From Shigella phage Tf, in the sequence record OR980947: a stretch of DNA of 64,000 bases. The stretch is one strand, 5' to 3'. The notes below the pieces were generated by a model. The model ran no database searches, had not been told where the DNA came from, and saw nothing but the letters and a program-made list of their open reading frames with translations. Position numbers and translations under genes: made by a program. Shown piece after piece: positions 2,170 through 16,960 of this stretch (positions are counted from its first letter, which is position 1; the number at the start of each line of letters is the position of its first letter).

Positions 2170-3522
2170 ATGTGGAATCCAATTGTTAATGTAGATATTA
2201 CATTGAACACCGCAGGAACTACAAGAGAAGGTTTTGGGCTACCACTATTTTTAGCTTCAACAGATAACTTTGAAGAAAGAGTCCGTGGTTACACTTCCTT
2301 AACTGAAGTTGCTGAAGATTTCGATGAGAGGTCTGCTGCATATAAGGCTGCTAAACAACTTTGGAGTCAGACTCCTAAAGTAACTCAGCTTTATATTGGT
2401 AGACGTGCTATGCAGTACACTGTATCAATTCCTGATGCCGTTACTGAGAGCACTGATTATTCTTTAACTGTAGCTGTGAGCGGTGGAATCTCTCAGCCAT
2501 TCCAGTACACTTCACAGGCATCAGATACCGCTGAGAAGGTGTTACAGCAGATTAAAACACAGATTGAAGCAGAACCTTCTGTAAAAGACCTTGTTACTGT
2601 CAATGTAACTGGTACTGGTGGTTCAGCGACAATGGTAATCACCAAAGCTGGTGTGAACGACTTCGTGAAGGTTACTACTACAGCACAAACAGTGTCAATT
2701 GCAAGTACAACTGCTGACACAGCATCGACTGCTCTGGCAGCTATTGAAGCTTATTCAACTGACTGGTATTTCATTGCAGCGGAAGACAGAACTCAACAGT
2801 TTGTCTTAGCAATGGCTTCTGAGATTCAAGCTCGTAAGAAGATTTTCTTTACAGCTAACTCTGATGTAACAGCCCTACAAGGTACAGAATTAGCCAGTGC
2901 AAATGATGTTCCAGCACAGCTTGCTAAGAATATGTACACTCGTACAGTTTGCTTGTGGCATCACACAGCAGCAGAGGATTATCCAGAAATGGCATACATT
3001 GCTTATGGTGCTCCATATGATGCAGGTTCGATTGCTTGGGGTAATGCACAGTTAACTGGTGTAGCTGCTTCTCTACAGCCAGCTAATAAGAGACCTCTGA
3101 CAAGTATTCAGAAGTCAGCTTTAGATGCACGTCACTGTAACTTTATTGACCTTGATGGTGGTGTTCCAGTGGTTCGTAGAGGGATTACTTCTGGTGGGGA
3201 ATGGATTGATATCATCCGTGGTGTTGACTGGTTAGAATCAGACCTGAAAACTTCTCTGAGAGACTTGCTAATTAACCAGAAGGGTGGTAAGATTACTTAT
3301 GATGATACTGGTATTACCCGTATTCGTCAAGTCATTGAAACCTCTCTGCAAAGAGCAGTCAACAGAAACTTCCTGTCATCTTACACAGTTAATGTTCCTA
3401 AAGCCTCTCAAGTTGCTTTGGCAGACAAGAAAGCACGTATCCTGAAAGACGTTACCTTCGCAGGTGTCTTAGCAGGGGCTATCTTGGATGTTGACTTGAA
3501 AGGTACAGTGGCTTACGAATAA
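2170..3522 (+). CDS. putative tail sheath protein
   Basis: 450 aa ORF directly upstream of a ~150 aa tube-sized ORF, chaperones and tape measure (P2/Mu-like order). Confidence 0.5.
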   Translation: MWNPIVNVDITLNTAGTTREGFGLPLFLASTDNFEERVRGYTSLTEVAEDFDERSAAYKAAKQLWSQTPKVTQLYIGRRAMQYTVSIPDAVTESTDYSLTVAVSGGISQPFQYTSQASDTAEKVLQQIKTQIEAEPSVKDLVTVNVTGTGGSATMVITKAGVNDFVKVTTTAQTVSIASTTADTASTALAAIEAYSTDWYFIAAEDRTQQFVLAMASEIQARKKIFFTANSDVTALQGTELASANDVPAQLAKNMYTRTVCLWHHTAAEDYPEMAYIAYGAPYDAGSIAWGNAQLTGVAASLQPANKRPLTSIQKSALDARHCNFIDLDGGVPVVRRGITSGGEWIDIIRGVDWLESDLKTSLRDLLINQKGGKITYDDTGITRIRQVIETSLQRAVNRNFLSSYTVNVPKASQVALADKKARILKDVTFAGVLAGAILDVDLKGTVAYE

Positions 3523-3537
3523 TAGAGGTAAATTGGA

Positions 3538-3984
3538 ATGGCTATGTATCAGCAATATTCCCCTAAAGACGTTGTATGTAGCTGGAATGGTATTGCCATT
3601 GAAGGCTTTGCCCCAGACTCATTCTTGCGTCTACAGAGAACATCACCACTTATCACACCAGTTGTAGGTGCAGGTGGTCAAGTTGCTCTGACAAGAAATG
3701 CAGACAAGACAGGTACTATTGAGATTGAGCTAATGCAGACTTCTCTCTCTAACCAGATGCTTTCTGCAATTCAAGCTAAACAAGACAATATGGAACTTGA
3801 AGAAGATATCTCTTCTAACTTCGTAATCTACGACCCATCAGGCTCTGTTCTGGCAACTGGTATTAATGCTTGGTTGCAGGAATTACCACAGATTGAACTT
3901 GGTCGTGACCAGAACTCTAAAACTTGGATTTTTGGTTGTGAGAAGTTAGACTACACTTCTACAATTCCAGCGTCAAGTGTTTAA
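3538..3984 (+). CDS. putative tail tube protein
   Basis: 148 aa ORF between sheath-sized gene and chaperone/tape-measure genes; followed by a terminator. Confidence 0.5.
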   Translation: MAMYQQYSPKDVVCSWNGIAIEGFAPDSFLRLQRTSPLITPVVGAGGQVALTRNADKTGTIEIELMQTSLSNQMLSAIQAKQDNMELEEDISSNFVIYDPSGSVLATGINAWLQELPQIELGRDQNSKTWIFGCEKLDYTSTIPASSV

Positions 3985-3995
3985 TAAATCCTATA

Positions 3996-4029
3996 AGGGG
4001 GAGACTTTAAAAGGTCTTCCCCTTTTTTG
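3996..4029 (+). terminator. rho-independent terminator
   Basis: GC hairpin gggggagac...gtcttcccc followed by tttttt. Confidence 0.6.
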
Positions 4030-4057
4030 TTTCTTTTAAAAGTATTAAGGAATCACA

Positions 4058-4456
4058 ATGAAAACAGAATCTAGAGTAATTAATGGTAAGAAAGTAAATA
4101 TCGTTCTGCTTGGGGCGAGAGATGGTATTAAGATGTCTATGAAGTTGGGTAAAATTGTTGTTCCAACCTTTGCACAGATGCTGTCAAGTCTGACTGATAA
4201 AGATAAGAAAGAAGCTCCAATGGTTCCATTTAAAGAACTTGTTGAAGCTTGTTTTGACAGAATTGAAGAAATTAACCTTGAAGAAATGGCTACACTATTA
4301 TTTCAAGGGGCAACTGTTGATGACTTCCCACTTAATATTGATACATACTTCCAAGCAAACTACGGTGAATTTATTGATTACTTAGCATTTGCGCTGGAGG
4401 CAAACTTCGGAAGTTTTTTCGAAGCAAGCATTTTCAAAAGCCTAACTTCTCAGTAA
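4058..4456 (+). CDS. putative tail assembly chaperone
   Basis: 132 aa ORF immediately upstream of tape measure gene. Confidence 0.4.
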   Translation: MKTESRVINGKKVNIVLLGARDGIKMSMKLGKIVVPTFAQMLSSLTDKDKKEAPMVPFKELVEACFDRIEEINLEEMATLLFQGATVDDFPLNIDTYFQANYGEFIDYLAFALEANFGSFFEASIFKSLTSQ

Positions 4457-4458
4457 AC

Positions 4459-4696
4459 ATGGGTAATACTCTACAGACACCACTGACTGATGCTGCTGTA
4501 GAGGCAACCTATGAAGAAGCAGACGAGATGAAATTTGTGCTTGCTATTTATGGTATGGAAGGGTGTAAAGAAACACTTGACCAACTCTTTGCTATGACAT
4601 TCTCTGATTTATTATCATTGAGACAATTTCTTGAAATTCAGAGGTCGTATAAAGAGGAAATTGCTTACAACGAACTTAGAAGAGCAGGAAAATGTA

Positions 4697-4716
<20 letters not shown>
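4459..4716 (+). CDS. putative second tail assembly chaperone-like protein
   Basis: 85 aa ORF between chaperone and tape measure; overlaps tape measure start by about 20 nt. Confidence 0.3.
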
Positions 4717-10060
<5,344 letters not shown>

Positions 10061-10061
<1 letters not shown>

Positions 10062-11530
10062 TGGCAGGACTAACTACAACAGGATTACAAACTCTAAGAT
10101 ATCAGGAGATTTTTGATAATATCAAATCAAGGCTTCTTAGAGATATTTCACCCAACCTTGACGTGTCTGAAGATAGTCAATTAGGACTCTTCCTAGCTTC
10201 AATTGCAAGGTCTTTAGCAGATACTCATGAGATTCTATCAGAAATCTACGATGGGGGTACAATTGATAAGGCTGAAGGCTTTAACCTTGATGATATTACC
10301 GCTTTAAACGCTGTATATAGGTATGTTGCACAGGCAACAAGAGGTCAGGTGGAGTTTACTGGAACCACTGGTGCTACTATTCCTTCAACAACAAGATTAA
10401 GAAGTACTGCCGGAAACATCTTTTACCCAGTTAACAACATTACCCTTACCCCATCATATTGTGTTGAAGCTGTCCTTGAAGTTAACTCTTTACGAACTGA
10501 TGCAGATTATGTTATTATTATTGATAACGTCATTTTCTCATATAAACCAACCTCATCAGACACAATCACCATACTTCTAACAAAATTAGCAGAAGCTATT
10601 AATGGTGGTATTGTAGCAAAGGCAGAAGTAATTAATGACGGAGCCTCATTAAGAATCTATAAAGATGAGGGTGATATCATTGCAAGAACAAACCCTATGG
10701 TTGTCACTGCGACAACGTTTCTTACCTTTACAAAAATTACAACTATTTCAGATGTAGTAGCTGAAGAGGTGGGTGCTACCCCTGCTTTAGCTGGTACGCT
10801 TATTGAGATTGAGACAACTGTTGATGGTCTTGACAGTATTTATAACAGGTATGATTTAACAACTGGTAGAAACGAAGAAACTGACACAGAACTCAGACAG
10901 AGATATTTAGAGTCTTTAGCAGTTACTGGTGTAGGTACTTTGGATGCAATTGTAGCTGCTGTTAAAAGAGTTCAAGGGGTCTCAGATGCTTCAGGTGTTG
11001 AAAATGATACTGAAGAGACAAACTCAGAAGGTCTTCCACCAAAATCTTTTAAGATTGTTGTAGTTGGTGGTCAAAATGATAATGTTGCTCAAGCAATCTG
11101 GGATACAAAACCTGCTGGTATCAGGGCTTATGGCTCAATTTTTGGTACAGCCTATGATTTAGGTGGTCTGGCACATAATATCTATTTTAGCAGACCAACA
11201 CCAAAATACGCATTTGTTAAGGTGTCTTACTCATTATATGACGAAGAAAGTTTGACAATCCCTGAAGAGGATATCAGAGACAGCATTGTACAAGGTATTA
11301 ATGCTTATGGGAGAACTCTTAAGGTTGGTAATGATGTTATCCCTAACAGAATCTATGGATATATCTATGACGTAATTAAAGGTATTGAGATTAATGAGGT
11401 TAAAGTAGCCTTATCAAACAGCCAATCAGTTCCACCTAGTGACGGGCAGTATACTACAGCAAGAATTACTGTTGACGGTGACCAATATACTGTATGGGAA
11501 AGTAGTCAGTACACCATTGCTAAGGAGTAA
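10061..11530 (+). CDS. putative baseplate J-like protein
   Basis: 489 aa ORF following gpW-like gene; size and position typical of baseplate J. Confidence 0.5.
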
Positions 11531-11532
11531 TA

Positions 11533-12387
11533 ATGTTTCAGAAAATTGATGATGTCTACTATAAGACTCTTGACGAAAGAACTGTAACACAGTTTAAAGA
11601 TAAATTTATCTATACAAGTATCTTGAAAGCAATCACTGATGAATTACAAACTCTAGAAGATGTTTGCTGGCAGATGCACACAGAGAGAAATATCAGGACG
11701 TCAGTAGGCCAACAACTTGATAACATTGGCTCACTGATTAAAGTTCCTAGACCTTTAGGTGCAGATGATGAAACATATAGGGCTATGCTTTATATTCAAA
11801 TCTTCCTAAGACGCTCTGACACTACTCCAACATTCTTGCAAAAAGCAATTATGACACTATATGGTGCAACTTTCTCTCAGATTTTTGAGCATATTACTCC
11901 TAAGACTGGTGGTATCGTTATCCGTATTAACACCAGAAAGAGCGTTCTTGATGCTGCATATACACTGTCAAAGATTTCTGCAACAACTACTGGTTCTGCT
12001 GTTATCTTAAGAGATGTTACTTTAAATGGAACTGCTTGGACACCTGTAGAGGTTGCTGATTCAGCACTTGCCATTGTTGATGATAAAGAGAACTGGTTTG
12101 TAACTGATGCTAACAGAGGTCTGGTAACAAATAACACTGGTGGCTCTCTGGAGTCCAACCTAGTAGGGAGTCTTACAGATGCTGGTGTTATTGATGGTTA
12201 CTTTAAGGTTGACAGAACAGCAAACTCACAGAGTGATGATTATATGACTGTAGATAGGTCCAATAATAGTGGCTATTTCATCGTTGGTAAAGAAGCTATT
12301 GCAGGTGGTGCATATGGAATCATGGCTGAGGTTGCACAAATTGTCAAAGGCAGAAAAGATAAATCACAACAAGAAGGAAATTCTTAA
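11533..12387 (+). CDS. putative baseplate/tail fibre-associated protein (gpI-like)
   Basis: Synteny: follows J-like gene and precedes tail fibres. Confidence 0.4.
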
Positions 12388-12689
12388 TGGCAGTTTTAAA
12401 TTGGTCTACAAATGAAGTAGATACTGATGGTAACCAGTTAAAAGTTTTACCACCACCGGAAGTTCAAGAGACAGGTCTTTTAAAGGGTGAACCTATGGGT
12501 AGACAGTGGTTCAACTATATTATCAACTACCTGCTTAATAAAGTAAACGGCACTGTTGGTGAAGTTCGCTCATATGCAACTCAGCAACCAGATTTAGTAG
12601 CCAATGGCTGGAAACTAATTAAGTCTGAGACAGGGACTGCAACAACAAGTACAAAGAACCTTTACACATATGAATATGTAGGAGCTTAA
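12387..12689 (+). CDS. hypothetical tail fibre-associated protein
   Basis: 100 aa ORF coupled to flanking tail genes. Confidence 0.3.
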
Positions 12690-12691
12690 TA

Positions 12692-13867
12692 ATGGCAGTC
12701 GGTGAAATTCAAATTAGTGCCTTGCCACAAGCGGCATTACCAGTTGATTTAAGTGATATCTTCCATCTTAAGCAAGGTGTTGAAGATAAAAGATGTACAC
12801 TTGAACATTTGTTAGCACCTCACGCATCTTTAAGGAATAACCCCCATGGCGTAACCAAATCGCAAGTGGGTCTTGATAATGTTATTAACTCTCTTCAATT
12901 AGTTGCAGATAATAACTTGTCAGATATTGTAAATGTTGCTGAGGCAAGAGCAAATCTACAAATTATGTCGTCAGAAGAAGTGAATAGTTTAATTCAGCGA
13001 CATATTGACGACAAAAGTAACCCACACAATACAACGAAAGCACAGGTCGGTTTAAGTAATGTTCAGAACTGGACAACATCCAATCTGTACAATGAAGATG
13101 CTGATAAATATGCTACCGCGAAAGCAGTTAATAATTTATACAAAGCTATCCAAGCGTCATATCCAGTAGGGACTATTCATCTATCTGTTAACTCTGCTAA
13201 CCCATCCACTTACTTACTTTGTGGAGGTACTTGGGAGTTAGTCTCTAAAGGTAGAGCACTAGTTGGTTATGATACAGATTCTAGACCTGTTGGTTCAACG
13301 TTTGGTTCTCAGACTGTAGCATTAACAAATAATAATTTACCAGCACATACACACTCTATCTATTTAACAGGTGGTGGTCACACACACTCTGCAAGCGTAT
13401 CTATCTCTAGTTTTGATTATGGTTCAAAAAGTACATCAACTTTTGATTACGGTACAAAAACGACTAATAGTGCTGGTGCTCATACTCACACGTTTAGTGG
13501 CACAACAAGTAATGCTGGTAACCACAACCACAGAGTACCTATGAGGGGTAATGATAGAGGTGGTACAAATGCTATTACTGCATCTGCTGATGCTGGTGTT
13601 GGTAATGCTATGTATACTGATTTAGCTGGTGCTCACACCCATAGCTTCTCAGGCACAACTGCATCATCTGGTGCTCATAGTCATACTGTTGCAATTGGTG
13701 CTCATAGTCACACTGTCAATATTGGTTCACACAGTCATACTGGCACTGTTACTGTTTCTAGCTCTGAGCATACACACTCAGGGACATCTGGTTCTGTTGG
13801 TGGTGGTCAAGCTTTCAGTGTTGAGCAACCATCTTTTGTAGTATATGTATGGCAGAGAACAGCTTAA
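12692..13867 (+). CDS. tail fibre protein with C-terminal His-x-His repeat domain
   Basis: C-terminal repeats HTHS/HSHT/HNH (LPAHTHS, GAHTHTFSGTT, GAHSHTV) and FDYG(S/T)K repeats, resembling metal-binding fibre tips; terminator follows. Confidence 0.55.
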   Translation: MAVGEIQISALPQAALPVDLSDIFHLKQGVEDKRCTLEHLLAPHASLRNNPHGVTKSQVGLDNVINSLQLVADNNLSDIVNVAEARANLQIMSSEEVNSLIQRHIDDKSNPHNTTKAQVGLSNVQNWTTSNLYNEDADKYATAKAVNNLYKAIQASYPVGTIHLSVNSANPSTYLLCGGTWELVSKGRALVGYDTDSRPVGSTFGSQTVALTNNNLPAHTHSIYLTGGGHTHSASVSISSFDYGSKSTSTFDYGTKTTNSAGAHTHTFSGTTSNAGNHNHRVPMRGNDRGGTNAITASADAGVGNAMYTDLAGAHTHSFSGTTASSGAHSHTVAIGAHSHTVNIGSHSHTGTVTVSSSEHTHSGTSGSVGGGQAFSVEQPSFVVYVWQRTA

Positions 13868-13877
13868 TTTCTTTACA

Positions 13878-13897
13878 GGGGCTTTGTAGCCCCTTTT
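13878..13897 (+). terminator. rho-independent terminator
   Basis: Hairpin ggggct ttgt agcccc followed by tttt. Confidence 0.55.
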
Positions 13898-13913
13898 AAG
13901 AGGAAAATTTATA

Positions 13914-16274
13914 ATGGCAGATTACAAATTGAGTCAATTAAACTCAATCGACACAATTCGTTCAGAAGACCTATTGCACATCAGAGTTAAGAAAAGACCT
14001 GAAATGTTGGGTGACGAAGACCGTCGAATGACCTATCAAGACTTCTTAGCATCTTTTAAACTAGAAAGATTTGTTCAGATTGCTGGTAGCACTATGACGG
14101 GTGACTTAGGAATTGTTAAGTTACTTTATGGTGGTAAGGCAGTCTTTGACCCAACAGGCTCTTCTGAGATTAATATTGGTGATGTTTTAAAGACTTTTAA
14201 AATCAACGCAAATGGTCTTAAGTTAACCGTTGCAGATGCTTCAAGGTCTGCAACTGTTTATCATACTCTTAATAAACCAAGCCCTAATGAACTTGGGATG
14301 AGAACCAATGAAGAGAACGATGCAAGGTATGCAAAACTATCTGCAAATAACATCTTTACATCCCAACAAACTATCCAAGCAAATGGTGAAGCTATTAGGT
14401 TAAAAAACTCTTCTGAGAACTCACCGTTGTATATCAGAGGTCAGGATAGTGCTGGTGAGAATAGATGGTATATCGGTAATGGTTCAGGGGGTGATAATGT
14501 TACTATCCGCAACCACAAGACAGACTGTGAAGTTATTCTATCTAGTGTCGTGGCTATCAATAAAACATTAAGCATCACGGGTCAAGTCAAACCTTCTGAC
14601 TTCTCTAACTTAGATGCTAGATATTTCACTCAGACAGTCGCTAATCAGAGATTTGCACAGTTAGCTGGCAATAACACCTTTACAGGTGCTAACACATTTA
14701 GGACTATGAGTGTTATTTCAAATGCTGCTGCCATCACACTGCAATGTGCATCAGCAAACGAATCCCTGTATCTACTTGCAAAAGATTATGAAGGTGGAAA
14801 CTTATGGTATCTTGGTAAAGATAGTTCAGGTGCTGGTGTAACTATCTACAACTATACCACTAACACCTCTTTGTTCTTAGATGCTGCTGGGGTATCAGCA
14901 AATAAAAATGTCAGAATCACTGGACAAGTTCAACCTTCAGATTGGACTAACATTGACTCTAGATACATTCCAGTAGCTACTTTGAGCAATCTTGCTAAAA
15001 TTAATGTGTCTAACACTTTCACAAATGTGCAGACTATTGTATCAAATAATGAAGGTGTAGTATTAAAGAACTTAACACAGGGACAGCCGCAATATATCCG
15101 TGGTGTTGATACTGCGAACGTATCTAGGTGGTGGGTAGGTGTAGGTGATGCAAATTCTACTGATGTAGCCTTAAACAACAGCTTCTCTGGGACTCAAATT
15201 ACTCTTATGACTTCAGCGATTAAGGCTAATAAGAATCTAACCATTACTGGTCAAGTACAACCTTCTGATTGGTCTAACTTAGATGCTAGATATTTCTTGA
15301 AAACAAAACTATTAAACCAATCTTTAATGACAAGGACAGCTAATAGACTGGATGACCCATCATCATTCAACAAAGATTATTCAGGGTTTGTAAGAAATAA
15401 TAACATAGAGCAGGGTCTGAAAGATTTAGCCATCCATGTAGCACATGCTGCTGGTATTGCTCATGCCAGAGGTATTGCTTTTGAATATGGGTCTACAGGT
15501 CTTAATGTCTTCACATATGCCTATGGCAAAAATGGTGACTATGCCGGAGAAGCACAGATTTATACAACTGCTTTTAAACCAACCCCTTCAGAAATTGGTG
15601 CATACACTAAAGCTGAAACTGACCAGAAGATTGCAGAAGCGATTAGTGACTCTACAGACCTTAATAAAATCTATCCAGTAGGTATTGTAACGTGGTTTAA
15701 CAGTAATGTTAACCCTAATACAGCACTTCCTGGTCTAACTTGGACGTACCTGAATAATGGTGTTGGTAGAACTATTAGAATTGCAGCAGCAAACGGTTCA
15801 GATGTTGCTACAACTGGTGGTTCAGACTCTGTAACGTTGTCTGTTGGTAACTTACCTTCACACACGCATAGTTTCTCTGGAACGACTTCTTGGTTTGACT
15901 ATGGAACTAAGTACACAGACGGTCAGGGTGCTCACGACCATGACAGAGGTAACATGGAAATCTCTGGTGACTTTGGTTTCTTCAGAAGTGATGCAAATAA
16001 CTTTTATACAGCAAGTGGGGCATTCGCTATCTCAGGTTCACAAGCCTCTAGGGGTTTTACTGGCTCTAAGTTCACTTATGGTACACCTGTCAACTTCTAC
16101 GCATCAAGAACTTGGACAGGGAGAACAAGCTGGGTAGGTGCTCATGCACATGGTGTAGGTATTGGTGCTCACAACCATACGGTAAGTGGTAACACAGGTG
16201 TCACAGGTTCTGGTTCAGCATTTAGTGTCACTAACCAATTCTATAAGTTAATGGCTTGGGTAAGAACTGCTTAA
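13914..16274 (+). CDS. long tail fibre protein with triplicated internal repeat and HxH C-terminal domain
   Basis: Three copies of ITGQV(K/Q)PSD(F/W)(S/T)N(L/I)D(A/S)RY; C-terminus shares LPSHTHSFSGTT and GAHAHGVGIGAHNHTV motifs with ORF 12692..13867. Confidence 0.55.
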   Translation: MADYKLSQLNSIDTIRSEDLLHIRVKKRPEMLGDEDRRMTYQDFLASFKLERFVQIAGSTMTGDLGIVKLLYGGKAVFDPTGSSEINIGDVLKTFKINANGLKLTVADASRSATVYHTLNKPSPNELGMRTNEENDARYAKLSANNIFTSQQTIQANGEAIRLKNSSENSPLYIRGQDSAGENRWYIGNGSGGDNVTIRNHKTDCEVILSSVVAINKTLSITGQVKPSDFSNLDARYFTQTVANQRFAQLAGNNTFTGANTFRTMSVISNAAAITLQCASANESLYLLAKDYEGGNLWYLGKDSSGAGVTIYNYTTNTSLFLDAAGVSANKNVRITGQVQPSDWTNIDSRYIPVATLSNLAKINVSNTFTNVQTIVSNNEGVVLKNLTQGQPQYIRGVDTANVSRWWVGVGDANSTDVALNNSFSGTQITLMTSAIKANKNLTITGQVQPSDWSNLDARYFLKTKLLNQSLMTRTANRLDDPSSFNKDYSGFVRNNNIEQGLKDLAIHVAHAAGIAHARGIAFEYGSTGLNVFTYAYGKNGDYAGEAQIYTTAFKPTPSEIGAYTKAETDQKIAEAISDSTDLNKIYPVGIVTWFNSNVNPNTALPGLTWTYLNNGVGRTIRIAAANGSDVATTGGSDSVTLSVGNLPSHTHSFSGTTSWFDYGTKYTDGQGAHDHDRGNMEISGDFGFFRSDANNFYTASGAFAISGSQASRGFTGSKFTYGTPVNFYASRTWTGRTSWVGAHAHGVGIGAHNHTVSGNTGVTGSGSAFSVTNQFYKLMAWVRTA

Positions 16275-16353: not shown

Positions 16354-16548
16354 ATGCCTACAATCCTAGCAATTCTTCTAAAAAATCTAGGTAGCTTCTT
16401 CTGGAAACTCATTTTATCCCTTCTAAGTGAATACATGATTGAGAAAGTGTTCTTTAAGCTTGCAAGATATCTTGCGAGTAAAACAGACACACCTATTGAT
16501 GATGAGTTCGTAGATAACTTAGAAAAAGCTTTTAAGGGGGAGAAATAA
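16354..16548 (+). CDS. putative holin-like small membrane protein
   Basis: 64 aa, N-terminal hydrophobic segment and charged C-terminus; follows the tail fibre genes. Confidence 0.3.
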   Translation: MPTILAILLKNLGSFFWKLILSLLSEYMIEKVFFKLARYLASKTDTPIDDEFVDNLEKAFKGEK

Positions 16549-16920
16549 ATGAAGTGGCTAGAGGAAGCTTTTAAAAATAATATTGGTGCAATTGTAGTTG
16601 GTATTTTTAGTGTTATCGGAATGTATACCACGATGCAAGTGTCAAGTGGTAAACAAGAGGTGTCTGTCAAAACAAAGTTACAACAGTTGGATAATTACAC
16701 AAGTAGTAACTATTCAGCTATTCGTGATTTACAGTCTGACATTAGACTTATTCAGTTAGGGATGGAGAACCAGAAAGTTCAGTTAGAGAATGTTAAGGGT
16801 GAGAACGCAAAACTTACTAAAACCCTTGATAAATTTTCTGATAGTGTGAACAATCTGGCTCAATCAGTATCAGCCCTCCAAGCTATTACTGAAAAGAACA
16901 CAAAGAATACTGAAAAATAA
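16549..16920 (+). CDS. membrane-anchored coiled-coil protein (possible lysis accessory)
   Basis: N-terminal TM helix IGAIVVGIFSVIGMY then coiled-coil-like sequence. Confidence 0.3.
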   Translation: MKWLEEAFKNNIGAIVVGIFSVIGMYTTMQVSSGKQEVSVKTKLQQLDNYTSSNYSAIRDLQSDIRLIQLGMENQKVQLENVKGENAKLTKTLDKFSDSVNNLAQSVSALQAITEKNTKNTEK

Positions 16921-16926
16921 AATTTT

Positions 16927-16960
16927 AAGGCTCCCGTAAAAAGGAGCCTTTTTTGTTTTT
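16927..16960. terminator. bidirectional rho-independent terminator between convergent gene blocks
   Basis: Hairpin aaggctcc cgtaaaaa ggagcctt flanked by A/T runs on both sides; lies between + gene ending 16920 and - gene ending 16960. Confidence 0.6.

Follow-up and report, generated by a model that had tools for sequence, protein, structure and literature searches.

The closest described counterparts of the locus reported here, a pair of tail fibre genes at positions 12692-16274 (+ strand) of a 64,000-nt stretch of Shigella phage Tf (sequence record OR980947; the whole stretch is called the window below), come from the phages VpaE1, Sf14 and Bas63. The VpaE1 study was the first to report, by BLASTP, that the C-termini of both fibres are homologous to the T4 gp37 adhesin, and it found conserved fibre N-termini with variable middle and C-terminal parts; the host of VpaE1 is limited to E. 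coli B, which has a truncated lipopolysaccharide (LPS) core (Viruses 2015, PMC4690856). Members of the genus Felixounavirus are generally LPS-dependent. In Shigella phage Sf14, proteins of 391 and 792 aa were docked as fibres of ~430 Å and ~630 Å, the longer of which has domains resembling the T7 gp17 pyramid and a distal tip resembling that of T4 gp37, and a chaperone homologue was not found (Commun Biol 2025, PMC11821841). Cryogenic electron microscopy (cryo-EM) of Bas63 (Escherichia phage JohannRWettstein) revealed that its short tail fibre (STF) and long tail fibre (LTF) both have a T4 gp37-like collar, a needle of His-x-His (HxH) motifs and a head (7 HxH in the STF and 6 in the LTF), that the LTF has repeated beta-helix domains, and that the tip is highly variable across the genus (Sci Adv 2025, PMC12609058). 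The Bas63 STF binds a wedge protein, while the LTF binds, and sits on, a platform protein of 100 aa; according to the same paper, the HxH motifs of the T4 gp37 needle coordinate Fe ions, seven Fe2+ in all (PMC12609058). The lengths of ~430 Å for the STF and ~630 Å for the LTF were measured on the Bas63 and Sf14 orthologues, and both fibres fold up along the sheath.

Megablast found 238 Felixounavirus-type records matching the region, the best of which were SP22, EC6, NBEco004 and ECOH1 (94-95% nucleotide identity in the window's first 25 kb). The genus is well sampled, and the window is identical to none of the records compared. The source is a Felix O1-like myophage of the genus Felixounavirus, and the two open reading frames (ORFs) are its two baseplate fibres. 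The STF gene (12692..13867, 391 aa; phrog_2097, tail fibre, E 2.5e-137) is the orthologue of Bas63 gp26, Sf14 gp52 and VpaE1 gp74, and its product shows 75% amino acid identity with the STFs of Bas63 (over the full length) and Sf14. The LTF gene (13914..16274, 786 aa; phrog_4277, E 0, 1257.7 bits, full length) is the orthologue of Bas63 gp27, Sf14 gp53 and VpaE1 gp75, with 61% amino acid identity to the Bas63 LTF and 53% to that of Sf14. These two genes and all features described below lie on the + strand unless otherwise stated. A first-pass annotation made from the DNA alone had called both ORFs tail fibres, and the coordinates it gave match exactly; the PHROG assignments and the Bas63 and Sf14 orthologues, which are found in virions, agree with it. 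Taken as a whole, the locus is very probably a pair of Felixounavirus fibre genes with T4 gp37-type tips, three repeats in the LTF and a swappable head cassette. Since the VpaE1, Sf14 and Bas63 papers cover the architecture, the gp37 homology and the HxH needle, this finding is already known and as a discovery adds little to those publications. What is new here is the exact boundaries of the head cassettes (13462-13668 in the STF and 15912-16136 in the LTF) and an old scaffold that carries different heads.

The evidence is strongest for the STF tip. The first-pass annotation had noted repeated HxH units and FDYG(S/T)K motifs at both C-termini and likened them to metal-coordinating fibre tips, and every string that it quoted was found. 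There are 25 His residues in the STF and nine HxH (aa 219, 230, 264, 278, 315, 329, 338, 347 and 360), a number reached by none of 5000 shuffles (mean 1.6, maximum 6), together with HTHS, two copies of AHSHTV, FDYG(S/T)K at aa 241 and 251, and LP(A/S)HTHS, which is common to both fibres. Residues 145-362 match PDB 2XGF, the crystal structure of the T4 gp37 tip, with an E of 1.8e-26. The outgoing part of the collar (aa ~145-218, 13124..13345), with LPAHTHS at its end, aligns with 2XGF from residue 17 onward and with the C-terminal domain of T4 gp10, and scores above the gathering threshold for Pfam PF21939 Gp10_C (67.6 bits against 27, E 2.9e-18). The outgoing needle strand (aa 219-280, 13346..13531) contains HxH 219, 230, 264 and 278, two FDYG(S/T)K units and a 25-nt direct repeat, and is aligned with H883/H915/H929 of T4 gp37. 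The variable head cassette (aa ~258-326, 13462..13668), which includes the distal head RVPMRGNDRGGTNAITASADAGVGNAMYTDLAG, was delimited by nucleotide homology breakpoints and by a drop in identity, which falls to 17-47% against relatives at aa 271-330. In the returning needle strand (aa 315-362, 13634..13777; HxH 315, 329, 338, 347 and 360), aligned with T4 H966/H980/H989/H998, an array of GAHSHTVxI has the 9-aa period seen in T4 and is encoded by a 27-nt tandem repeat of 3.2 copies. Finally, the C-terminal strand back to the collar (…GQAFSVEQPSFVVYVWQRTA, 13778..13867 with the stop codon) aligns with …NIAFNYIVRLA of T4 gp37 and …ITVYRWIRIA of gp10. The T4 needle has seven HxH (883, 915, 929, 966, 980, 989 and 998), all of which have an aligned HxH in the STF (7/7); the STF has two more, both collar-proximal, namely 360 and one of 219 and 230, the first T4 site (883) being paired with 219 by MAFFT and with 230 by HMMER. 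The same STF tip occurs, 100% identical, in phages ECOH1 and E9. Outside the tip, the N-terminal shaft of the STF (12827-13072, aa ~46-127) holds NPH(G/N)(V/T)TK(S/A)QVGL(D/S)NV twice, at aa 50-64 and 110-124. This motif is often met in the shafts of phage fibres.

Both fibre proteins were aligned with those of ten relatives. In the LTF, the N-terminal region (aa 1-127, 13914..14294) is 87-100% identical in Felixounavirus relatives and is presumed to bind the baseplate, a role taken from Bas63 cryo-EM. It is followed by three repeat units, each supported by hhalign, hmmsearch and PF20744: aa 128-237 (110 aa, 14295..14624; hmmsearch domain 130-237), aa 238-351 (114 aa, 14625..14966) and aa 352-460 (109 aa, 14967..15293). 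The three tandem repeats of about 110 aa that had been proposed for the longer fibre are thereby borne out: the units align end to end and are homologous in profile-profile comparison of alignments from ten phages (hhalign E 8.9e-36, 4.4e-44 and 1.3e-35), Pfam PF20744 (gp37_trimer) matches the protein three times (E 4.8e-67, 222.5 bits against a cutoff of 21.7), the motif ITGQV(K/Q)PSD(F/W)(S/T)N(L/I)D(A/S)RY recurs at aa 221, 335 and 444, and a DNA core of 69 nt is still 70-83% identical. A hidden Markov model (HMM) of the unit found exactly three copies in each of ten LTFs and none elsewhere in them, and neither hhalign nor hmmsearch detected a fourth or fifth repeat in aa 30-127 or 461-575 of the ten. 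A BLASTP comparison of the LTF with itself gave no off-diagonal match at 1e-3, so the repeats need profile methods to show. Positions 27-96 of the unit profile match residues 369-435 of the T7 gp17 pyramid domain (7BOZ/4A0T, E 5.4e-9 and 1.1e-8). In T7 gp17 (PDB 4A0T, 4A0U and 7BOZ), one pyramid domain is followed by a globular tip, whereas the LTF of the window has three in tandem and then a gp37-type tip. Between the repeats and the tip lies a hypervariable shaft segment (aa 461-570, 15294..15623), recognised from sliding identity and not a detectable fourth repeat, as the repeat HMM has no match in it; its residues 481-540 show 1-16% identity to most relatives. Along the whole protein, conservation within the genus reaches 87-100% in aa 1-150, in the ITGQV…RY linkers, in the collar (aa 571-660) and in the final 36 residues; the repeat-unit cores vary strongly, as do aa 461-540 and aa 661-750. 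In the EC6 record (NC_027369), the long fibre is split into two overlapping coding sequences, 7223-8848 ('tail fiber protein') and 8814-9593 ('tail protein'), a split that probably stems from a frameshift or from an error in the sequencing of that record.

The LTF tip has four HxH (aa 650, 674, 744 and 753), three fewer than T4 gp37 and all within the last 140 residues; shuffled sequences had 0.24 on average and 3 at most, and 0 of 5000 reached four. It also carries AHNHTV, and FDYG(S/T)K at aa 661. The collar and outgoing needle strand (aa 571-666, 15624..15911; YPVG…LPSHTHSFSGTTSWFDYGTK, HxH 650) are 90-100% identical in Felixounavirus relatives and match Gp10_C with an E of 2.5e-5 and 25.7 bits, just under the 27-bit threshold. 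The head cassette, here called type I (aa 667-741, 15912..16136; GAHDHDRGNMEISG…SGAF…FYASRTWTGRTSW, HxH 674), was delimited by nucleotide homology breakpoints. The returning needle strand (GAHAHGVGIGAHNHTV; HxH 744 and 753) and the C-terminal collar strand (…AFSVTNQFYKLMAWVRTA) with the stop codon occupy 16137..16274 and are again 93-100% identical in Felixounavirus relatives. The match of aa 645-765 to 2XGF is weaker than that of the STF (E 7.9e-5), and HxH 650, 674, 744 and 753 share columns with T4 883, 915, 980 and 989 (4/7 of the T4 positions). The LTF is further linked to the T4 tip transitively, through the STF (E 6e-19) and through the VpaE1 LTF (E 1.5e-59 to T4), and the profile of its tip matches 2FKK (E 3.1e-7). 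In both fibres of the window, the HxH are in register with those of T4 gp37, the FDYGTK and GAHxHxVGIGAHxHTV motifs are shared, and the C-terminus aligns with the collar strand. Judged by homology, both tips are of the T4 gp37 type; the proposed resemblance to metal-coordinating tips holds on the same ground, and the tips probably bind metal.

Several observations weigh against this reading. The match of the LTF to 2XGF is modest (E 8e-5) and only four HxH are kept; HSH at T4 929-931 is FGF in the LTF, and HSH at T4 966-968 is ASR, so the distal part of the LTF may be no gp37-like needle. The T4 998 layer is deleted in all LTFs compared. In a single-chain AlphaFold2 model of the LTF tip, for which a 65-sequence alignment was used, the mean pLDDT was 71.8. 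The first-pass annotation had looked to structure prediction of the C-termini, and the model is confident for the needle base and most of the collar (85-93) and for the last 20 residues (87-93), but the head (tip residues 110-160) lies below 50. A Foldseek search of the PDB with this model returned no match at E <= 0.001, the best being T4 gp10 (E 0.039). In alignment, …AFSV…W(Q/V)RTA at the C-terminus pairs with the last strand of T4 gp37 and of gp10; the turn and head are unmodelled (pLDDT < 50) and the fold matches are weak. A three-chain His cluster cannot show in a monomer model, so metal coordination is argued from homology; metal, trimer and receptor binding all lie beyond what sequence can show directly. 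For the shaft, the Bas63 authors count five LTF beta-helix domains, whereas the sequence methods used here give three related units. In T4, the fibre is built from four proteins; gp37 (1026 aa) makes up its distal half and depends on the chaperones gp38 and gp57A. Each fibre of the window is, unlike that of T4, one shorter protein, and there is no gp38 homologue in the window (tblastn with T4 gp38 over its whole length, best E 0.24), so folding may differ from that of T4 gp37.

Some of these points would be accounted for if the LTF tip combined a gp10/gp12-like collar with a different, metal-poor globular head, its few HxH being relics. Besides the low number of HxH and the replacement of two T4 iron layers by FGF and ASR, such an arrangement is favoured by the best structural and profile matches, which are to the C-terminal domain of T4 gp10 and not to 2XGF, by the occurrence of the head signature in distant fibres with only 2-3 HxH, and by the lack of a sequence match between solved structures and the head. 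We nevertheless consider it unlikely. The four HxH fall in T4 columns, H76/H78, H100/H102 and H179/H181 of the tip are nearly invariant among 65 homologues, and orthologous LTFs with other heads (VpaE1 and Bas63) are clearly gp37-like and have the same scaffold.

The gp37-type reading also has to be weighed against the idea that the C-terminus, rich in His, serves as an intramolecular chaperone or is a module removed by autoproteolysis (compare T5 pb1 and endosialidase fibres), and is absent from the mature tip. No fibre chaperone gene was seen adjoining the fibre genes, which would fit a built-in chaperone, and the Sf14 paper likewise found none (PMC11821841). However, Pfam shows no Peptidase_S74 or other chaperone domain in these proteins, the C-terminal strand aligns with the collar-completing strand of T4 gp37 and gp10, and in the Bas63 virion the whole tip fits the cryo-EM density (PMC12609058). 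Of all the alternatives weighed in this work, we give this one the least credence. Dependence on gp38 characterises T4, not the gp37 fold as such.

The two C-termini proved homologous on formal alignment, with 32% identity over 243 columns between STF 157-391 and LTF 587-786 (BLASTP, E 6e-19). The first-pass annotation had taken this shared module as a sign of domain exchange relevant to host range. In the window, blastn detected no nucleotide similarity between the two genes at E <= 1e-3, only HxH-coding stretches of 44-47 nt align (61-72% identity), and the two heads are unrelated (RVPMRGNDRGG… versus DRGNMEISGDFGFF…). With 32% amino acid identity, no nucleotide similarity and unrelated heads, nothing points to a recent exchange between the two genes of the window, and on this comparison the shared C-terminal module here is an old paralogous scaffold. 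The situation differs in the Salmonella phages Felix O1a, Mushroom and BPS15Q2, whose STF and LTF genes share 195-271 nt over the head at 78-85% nucleotide identity and whose two tips are 47-50% identical (E 1e-52 to 1e-56). Because one head is present in both fibres of these Felix O1-type phages, both fibres probably bind the same receptor, unlike those of the window. These three phages provide the precedent for supposing that the shared module reflects recent exchange or gene conversion between the fibre genes of the present genome too, with both fibres seeing the same receptor; given the 32% identity of its tips, the blank blastn result outside short HxH-coding stretches and the unrelated heads, this is highly improbable. 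Inter-fibre exchange, as far as these alignments indicate, occurs in the genus and not in this genome, so the original claim stands for exchange between phages and between the fibres of Felix O1-type phages but not for the two genes in the window. In Felix O1a, the fibre genes lie at 4069-5235 and 5286-7625 of the compared stretch, and the shared head cassette reads VGGRYGGDSIGGK.RVQVSG….

Exchange among phages was judged by sliding identity, tip alignment and nucleotide breakpoints. The comparison of tips across relatives suggested in the first-pass annotation yielded discrete head types, each a cassette with shared junction motifs. LTF head type I, which is long and aromatic-rich and has 4 HxH, is present in the window, GEP101, ECOH1 and Sf14; the other LTF head types are that of VpaE1, which is T4-like, that of Bas63 and Andreotti, and that of Felix O1a, Mushroom and BPS15Q2. 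Compared with genes that carry the Bas63, Felix O1 or VpaE1 type of head, the LTF gene loses nucleotide homology at 15910-15916, in the last FDYGTK codons, and regains it at 16137-16155, at the GAHAHGVGIGAH codons. In the STF gene, homology to Bas63 and Andreotti breaks off at 13461, where FDYGTK ends, and is regained at 13669, in GAHSHTV. With breakpoints at FDYGTK and GAHxH in both the STF and the LTF, the same two motifs bound the cassette in the two genes. The comparisons show that a head cassette of ~225 nt has been swapped among phages, presumably by recombination. Bas63 is like the window in its orthologous genes, its locus order and its three LTF sequence repeats, but has other head cassettes in both fibres and 7 and 6 HxH against 9 and 4; relative to the Bas63 LTF head, that of the window is ~30 aa longer, aromatic-rich and two His layers poorer. 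Sf14 likewise has two fibres of this architecture (391 and 792 aa), and its LTF shares the type I head and the four HxH, but the phage belongs to the genus Mooglevirus, and its LTF is 21-73% identical to that of the window outside the head and 53% overall. The LTF heads of the two phages are 77-93% identical, while the flanks and collar are 67-73% identical, and this excess in the head relative to the flanks, in a phage of another genus, indicates horizontal transfer of the head. The heads of the window are unrelated to the OmpC/LPS-binding head of T4, unlike the LTF head of VpaE1, which is almost that of T4 gp37: the tip of the VpaE1 LTF (2815-5169 of the compared stretch) is 57% identical to T4 gp37 over 192 aa (E 1.5e-59), a case of exchange between phage families. 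With the STF tip as a query, tblastn reached T-even gp37, lambda Stf and other fibres, and the junction motifs FDYGTK and GAHxHxVGIGAHxHTV recur in T4-, lambda- and P2/Mu-type fibres. Tetart et al., in 1996 and 1998, reportedly described recombination at conserved His-containing motifs ('His-box') of T-even gp37, and the cassette junctions of the window resemble that process.

The type I head is the sole piece of the LTF outside published structures, the Sf14 fibres being docked AlphaFold models and the Bas63 head being of another type. A profile search of the PDB gave no solved structure for it; only the collar part of the tip was matched (gp10, 7Z47 and 8KEC). Its signature, HxHxRGxMxIxG … SGAF … FxAS(R/K)xWxGxTS, is common to distant metagenomic and prophage fibres, some of which have only 2-3 HxH, and the LTF tip has full-length matches with 40-50% identity in prophage fibres of Erwinia, Photorhabdus, Serratia and Providencia. 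As a tentative proposal, to which we give somewhat less than even chances, type I may be a structurally uncharacterised family of receptor-binding heads that is widespread in enterobacterial prophage fibres, with the flanking FDYGTK and GAHxHxVGIGAHxHTV serving as universal recombination joints. Under this proposal, heads could pass through such joints from one fibre to the other within a phage, as in Felix O1, from genus to genus, as for Sf14, and across families, as for the T4-like head of VpaE1.

Taking the fibres to be of the gp37 type, we propose the following working model. Each fibre would be a homotrimer docked to the baseplate by its N-terminal domain, the STF on the wedge and the LTF on the platform, as in Bas63. 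The LTF shaft contains three tandem ~110-aa domains of the gp17 'pyramid'/gp37_trimer kind, with conserved ITGQVxPSDxxNxDxRY linkers between them. In the tip, each chain is predicted to leave the collar as an outward needle strand, form the distal head, turn, run down the needle and end in the collar. The needle of the trimer would then be a six-stranded tube, in which inward-pointing HxH pairs, six His per layer, would hold metal (Fe2+ in T4) and rivet the fibre; up to 9 such sites are predicted for the STF and 4 for the LTF. The distal head would contact the receptor, which for the genus is presumably the LPS core or O-antigen, and as the two heads differ, the phage probably reads two different surface features. 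Host range would evolve by swaps of ~225-nt cassettes that have FDYGTK as their left and GAHxHxVGIGAHxHTV as their right boundary. The phages with the closest tip matches had E. coli, in some cases O157:H7 strains, as isolation host, which makes E. coli the likely host. Felix O1-type phages find use in diagnostics, biocontrol and therapy directed at Salmonella and E. coli, and their host range is set by the fibre pair; the cassette boundaries, together with the recurring junction motifs, offer a practical recipe for head swaps in host-range engineering.

Between the STF stop and the LTF start there is a GC hairpin (GGGGC-N6-GCCCC followed by TTTT, 13878..13897). Its stem is nearly invariant in 10 relatives, including one of another genus, with the outermost pair altered in three, while the loop varies; the predicted dG is -16.5 kcal/mol (z -2.5). 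A consensus terminator scan did not call the hairpin at 13878-13897, because it is followed by only 4 T. Conservation and folding suggest that it is nevertheless real, and it may serve to attenuate transcription or to stabilise the mRNA.

The fibre genes are embedded in a conserved order: two wedge genes (10061-11530 and 11533-12387), a gene for a 100-aa protein (12387-12689), the STF and LTF genes, a 64-aa ORF, a 123-aa ORF and thyA on the opposite strand. The order from the wedge to thyA is unchanged in 10/10 relatives compared (EC6, GEP101, Andreotti, VpaE1, Sf14, BPS15Q2, Mushroom, Bas63, Felix O1a and ECOH1), and the window matches their synteny pattern of a ~390-aa fibre followed by a ~780-850-aa fibre, a small ORF, a holin and a reversed thyA. 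The 100-aa baseplate protein (12387..12689; phrog_4141, E 3.1e-60) has the position and length of bas63_0025 and is the orthologue of Bas63 gp25, the 'LTF platform'. Of the two ORFs 3' of the LTF gene (16354-16920), the first (64 aa) matches phrog_402, of unknown function, and the second (123 aa) matches phrog_4038 and carries a holin annotation in relatives. ARAGORN found no tRNA genes in the window. Upstream of the fibres, the central baseplate spike (207 aa, 9019-9642) contains …NEHTHHYYW… near its C-terminus (His 188 and 190), in agreement with the iron-binding HxH reported in the spikes of Bas63 and Sf14, and is a third HxH protein of the tail module. Downstream, a terminator-like bidirectional hairpin at 16927-16950 marks the point where the late tail and lysis genes meet the minus-strand thyA-dfr block head-on, and the GC skew changes sign from about 18 kb to 26 kb.

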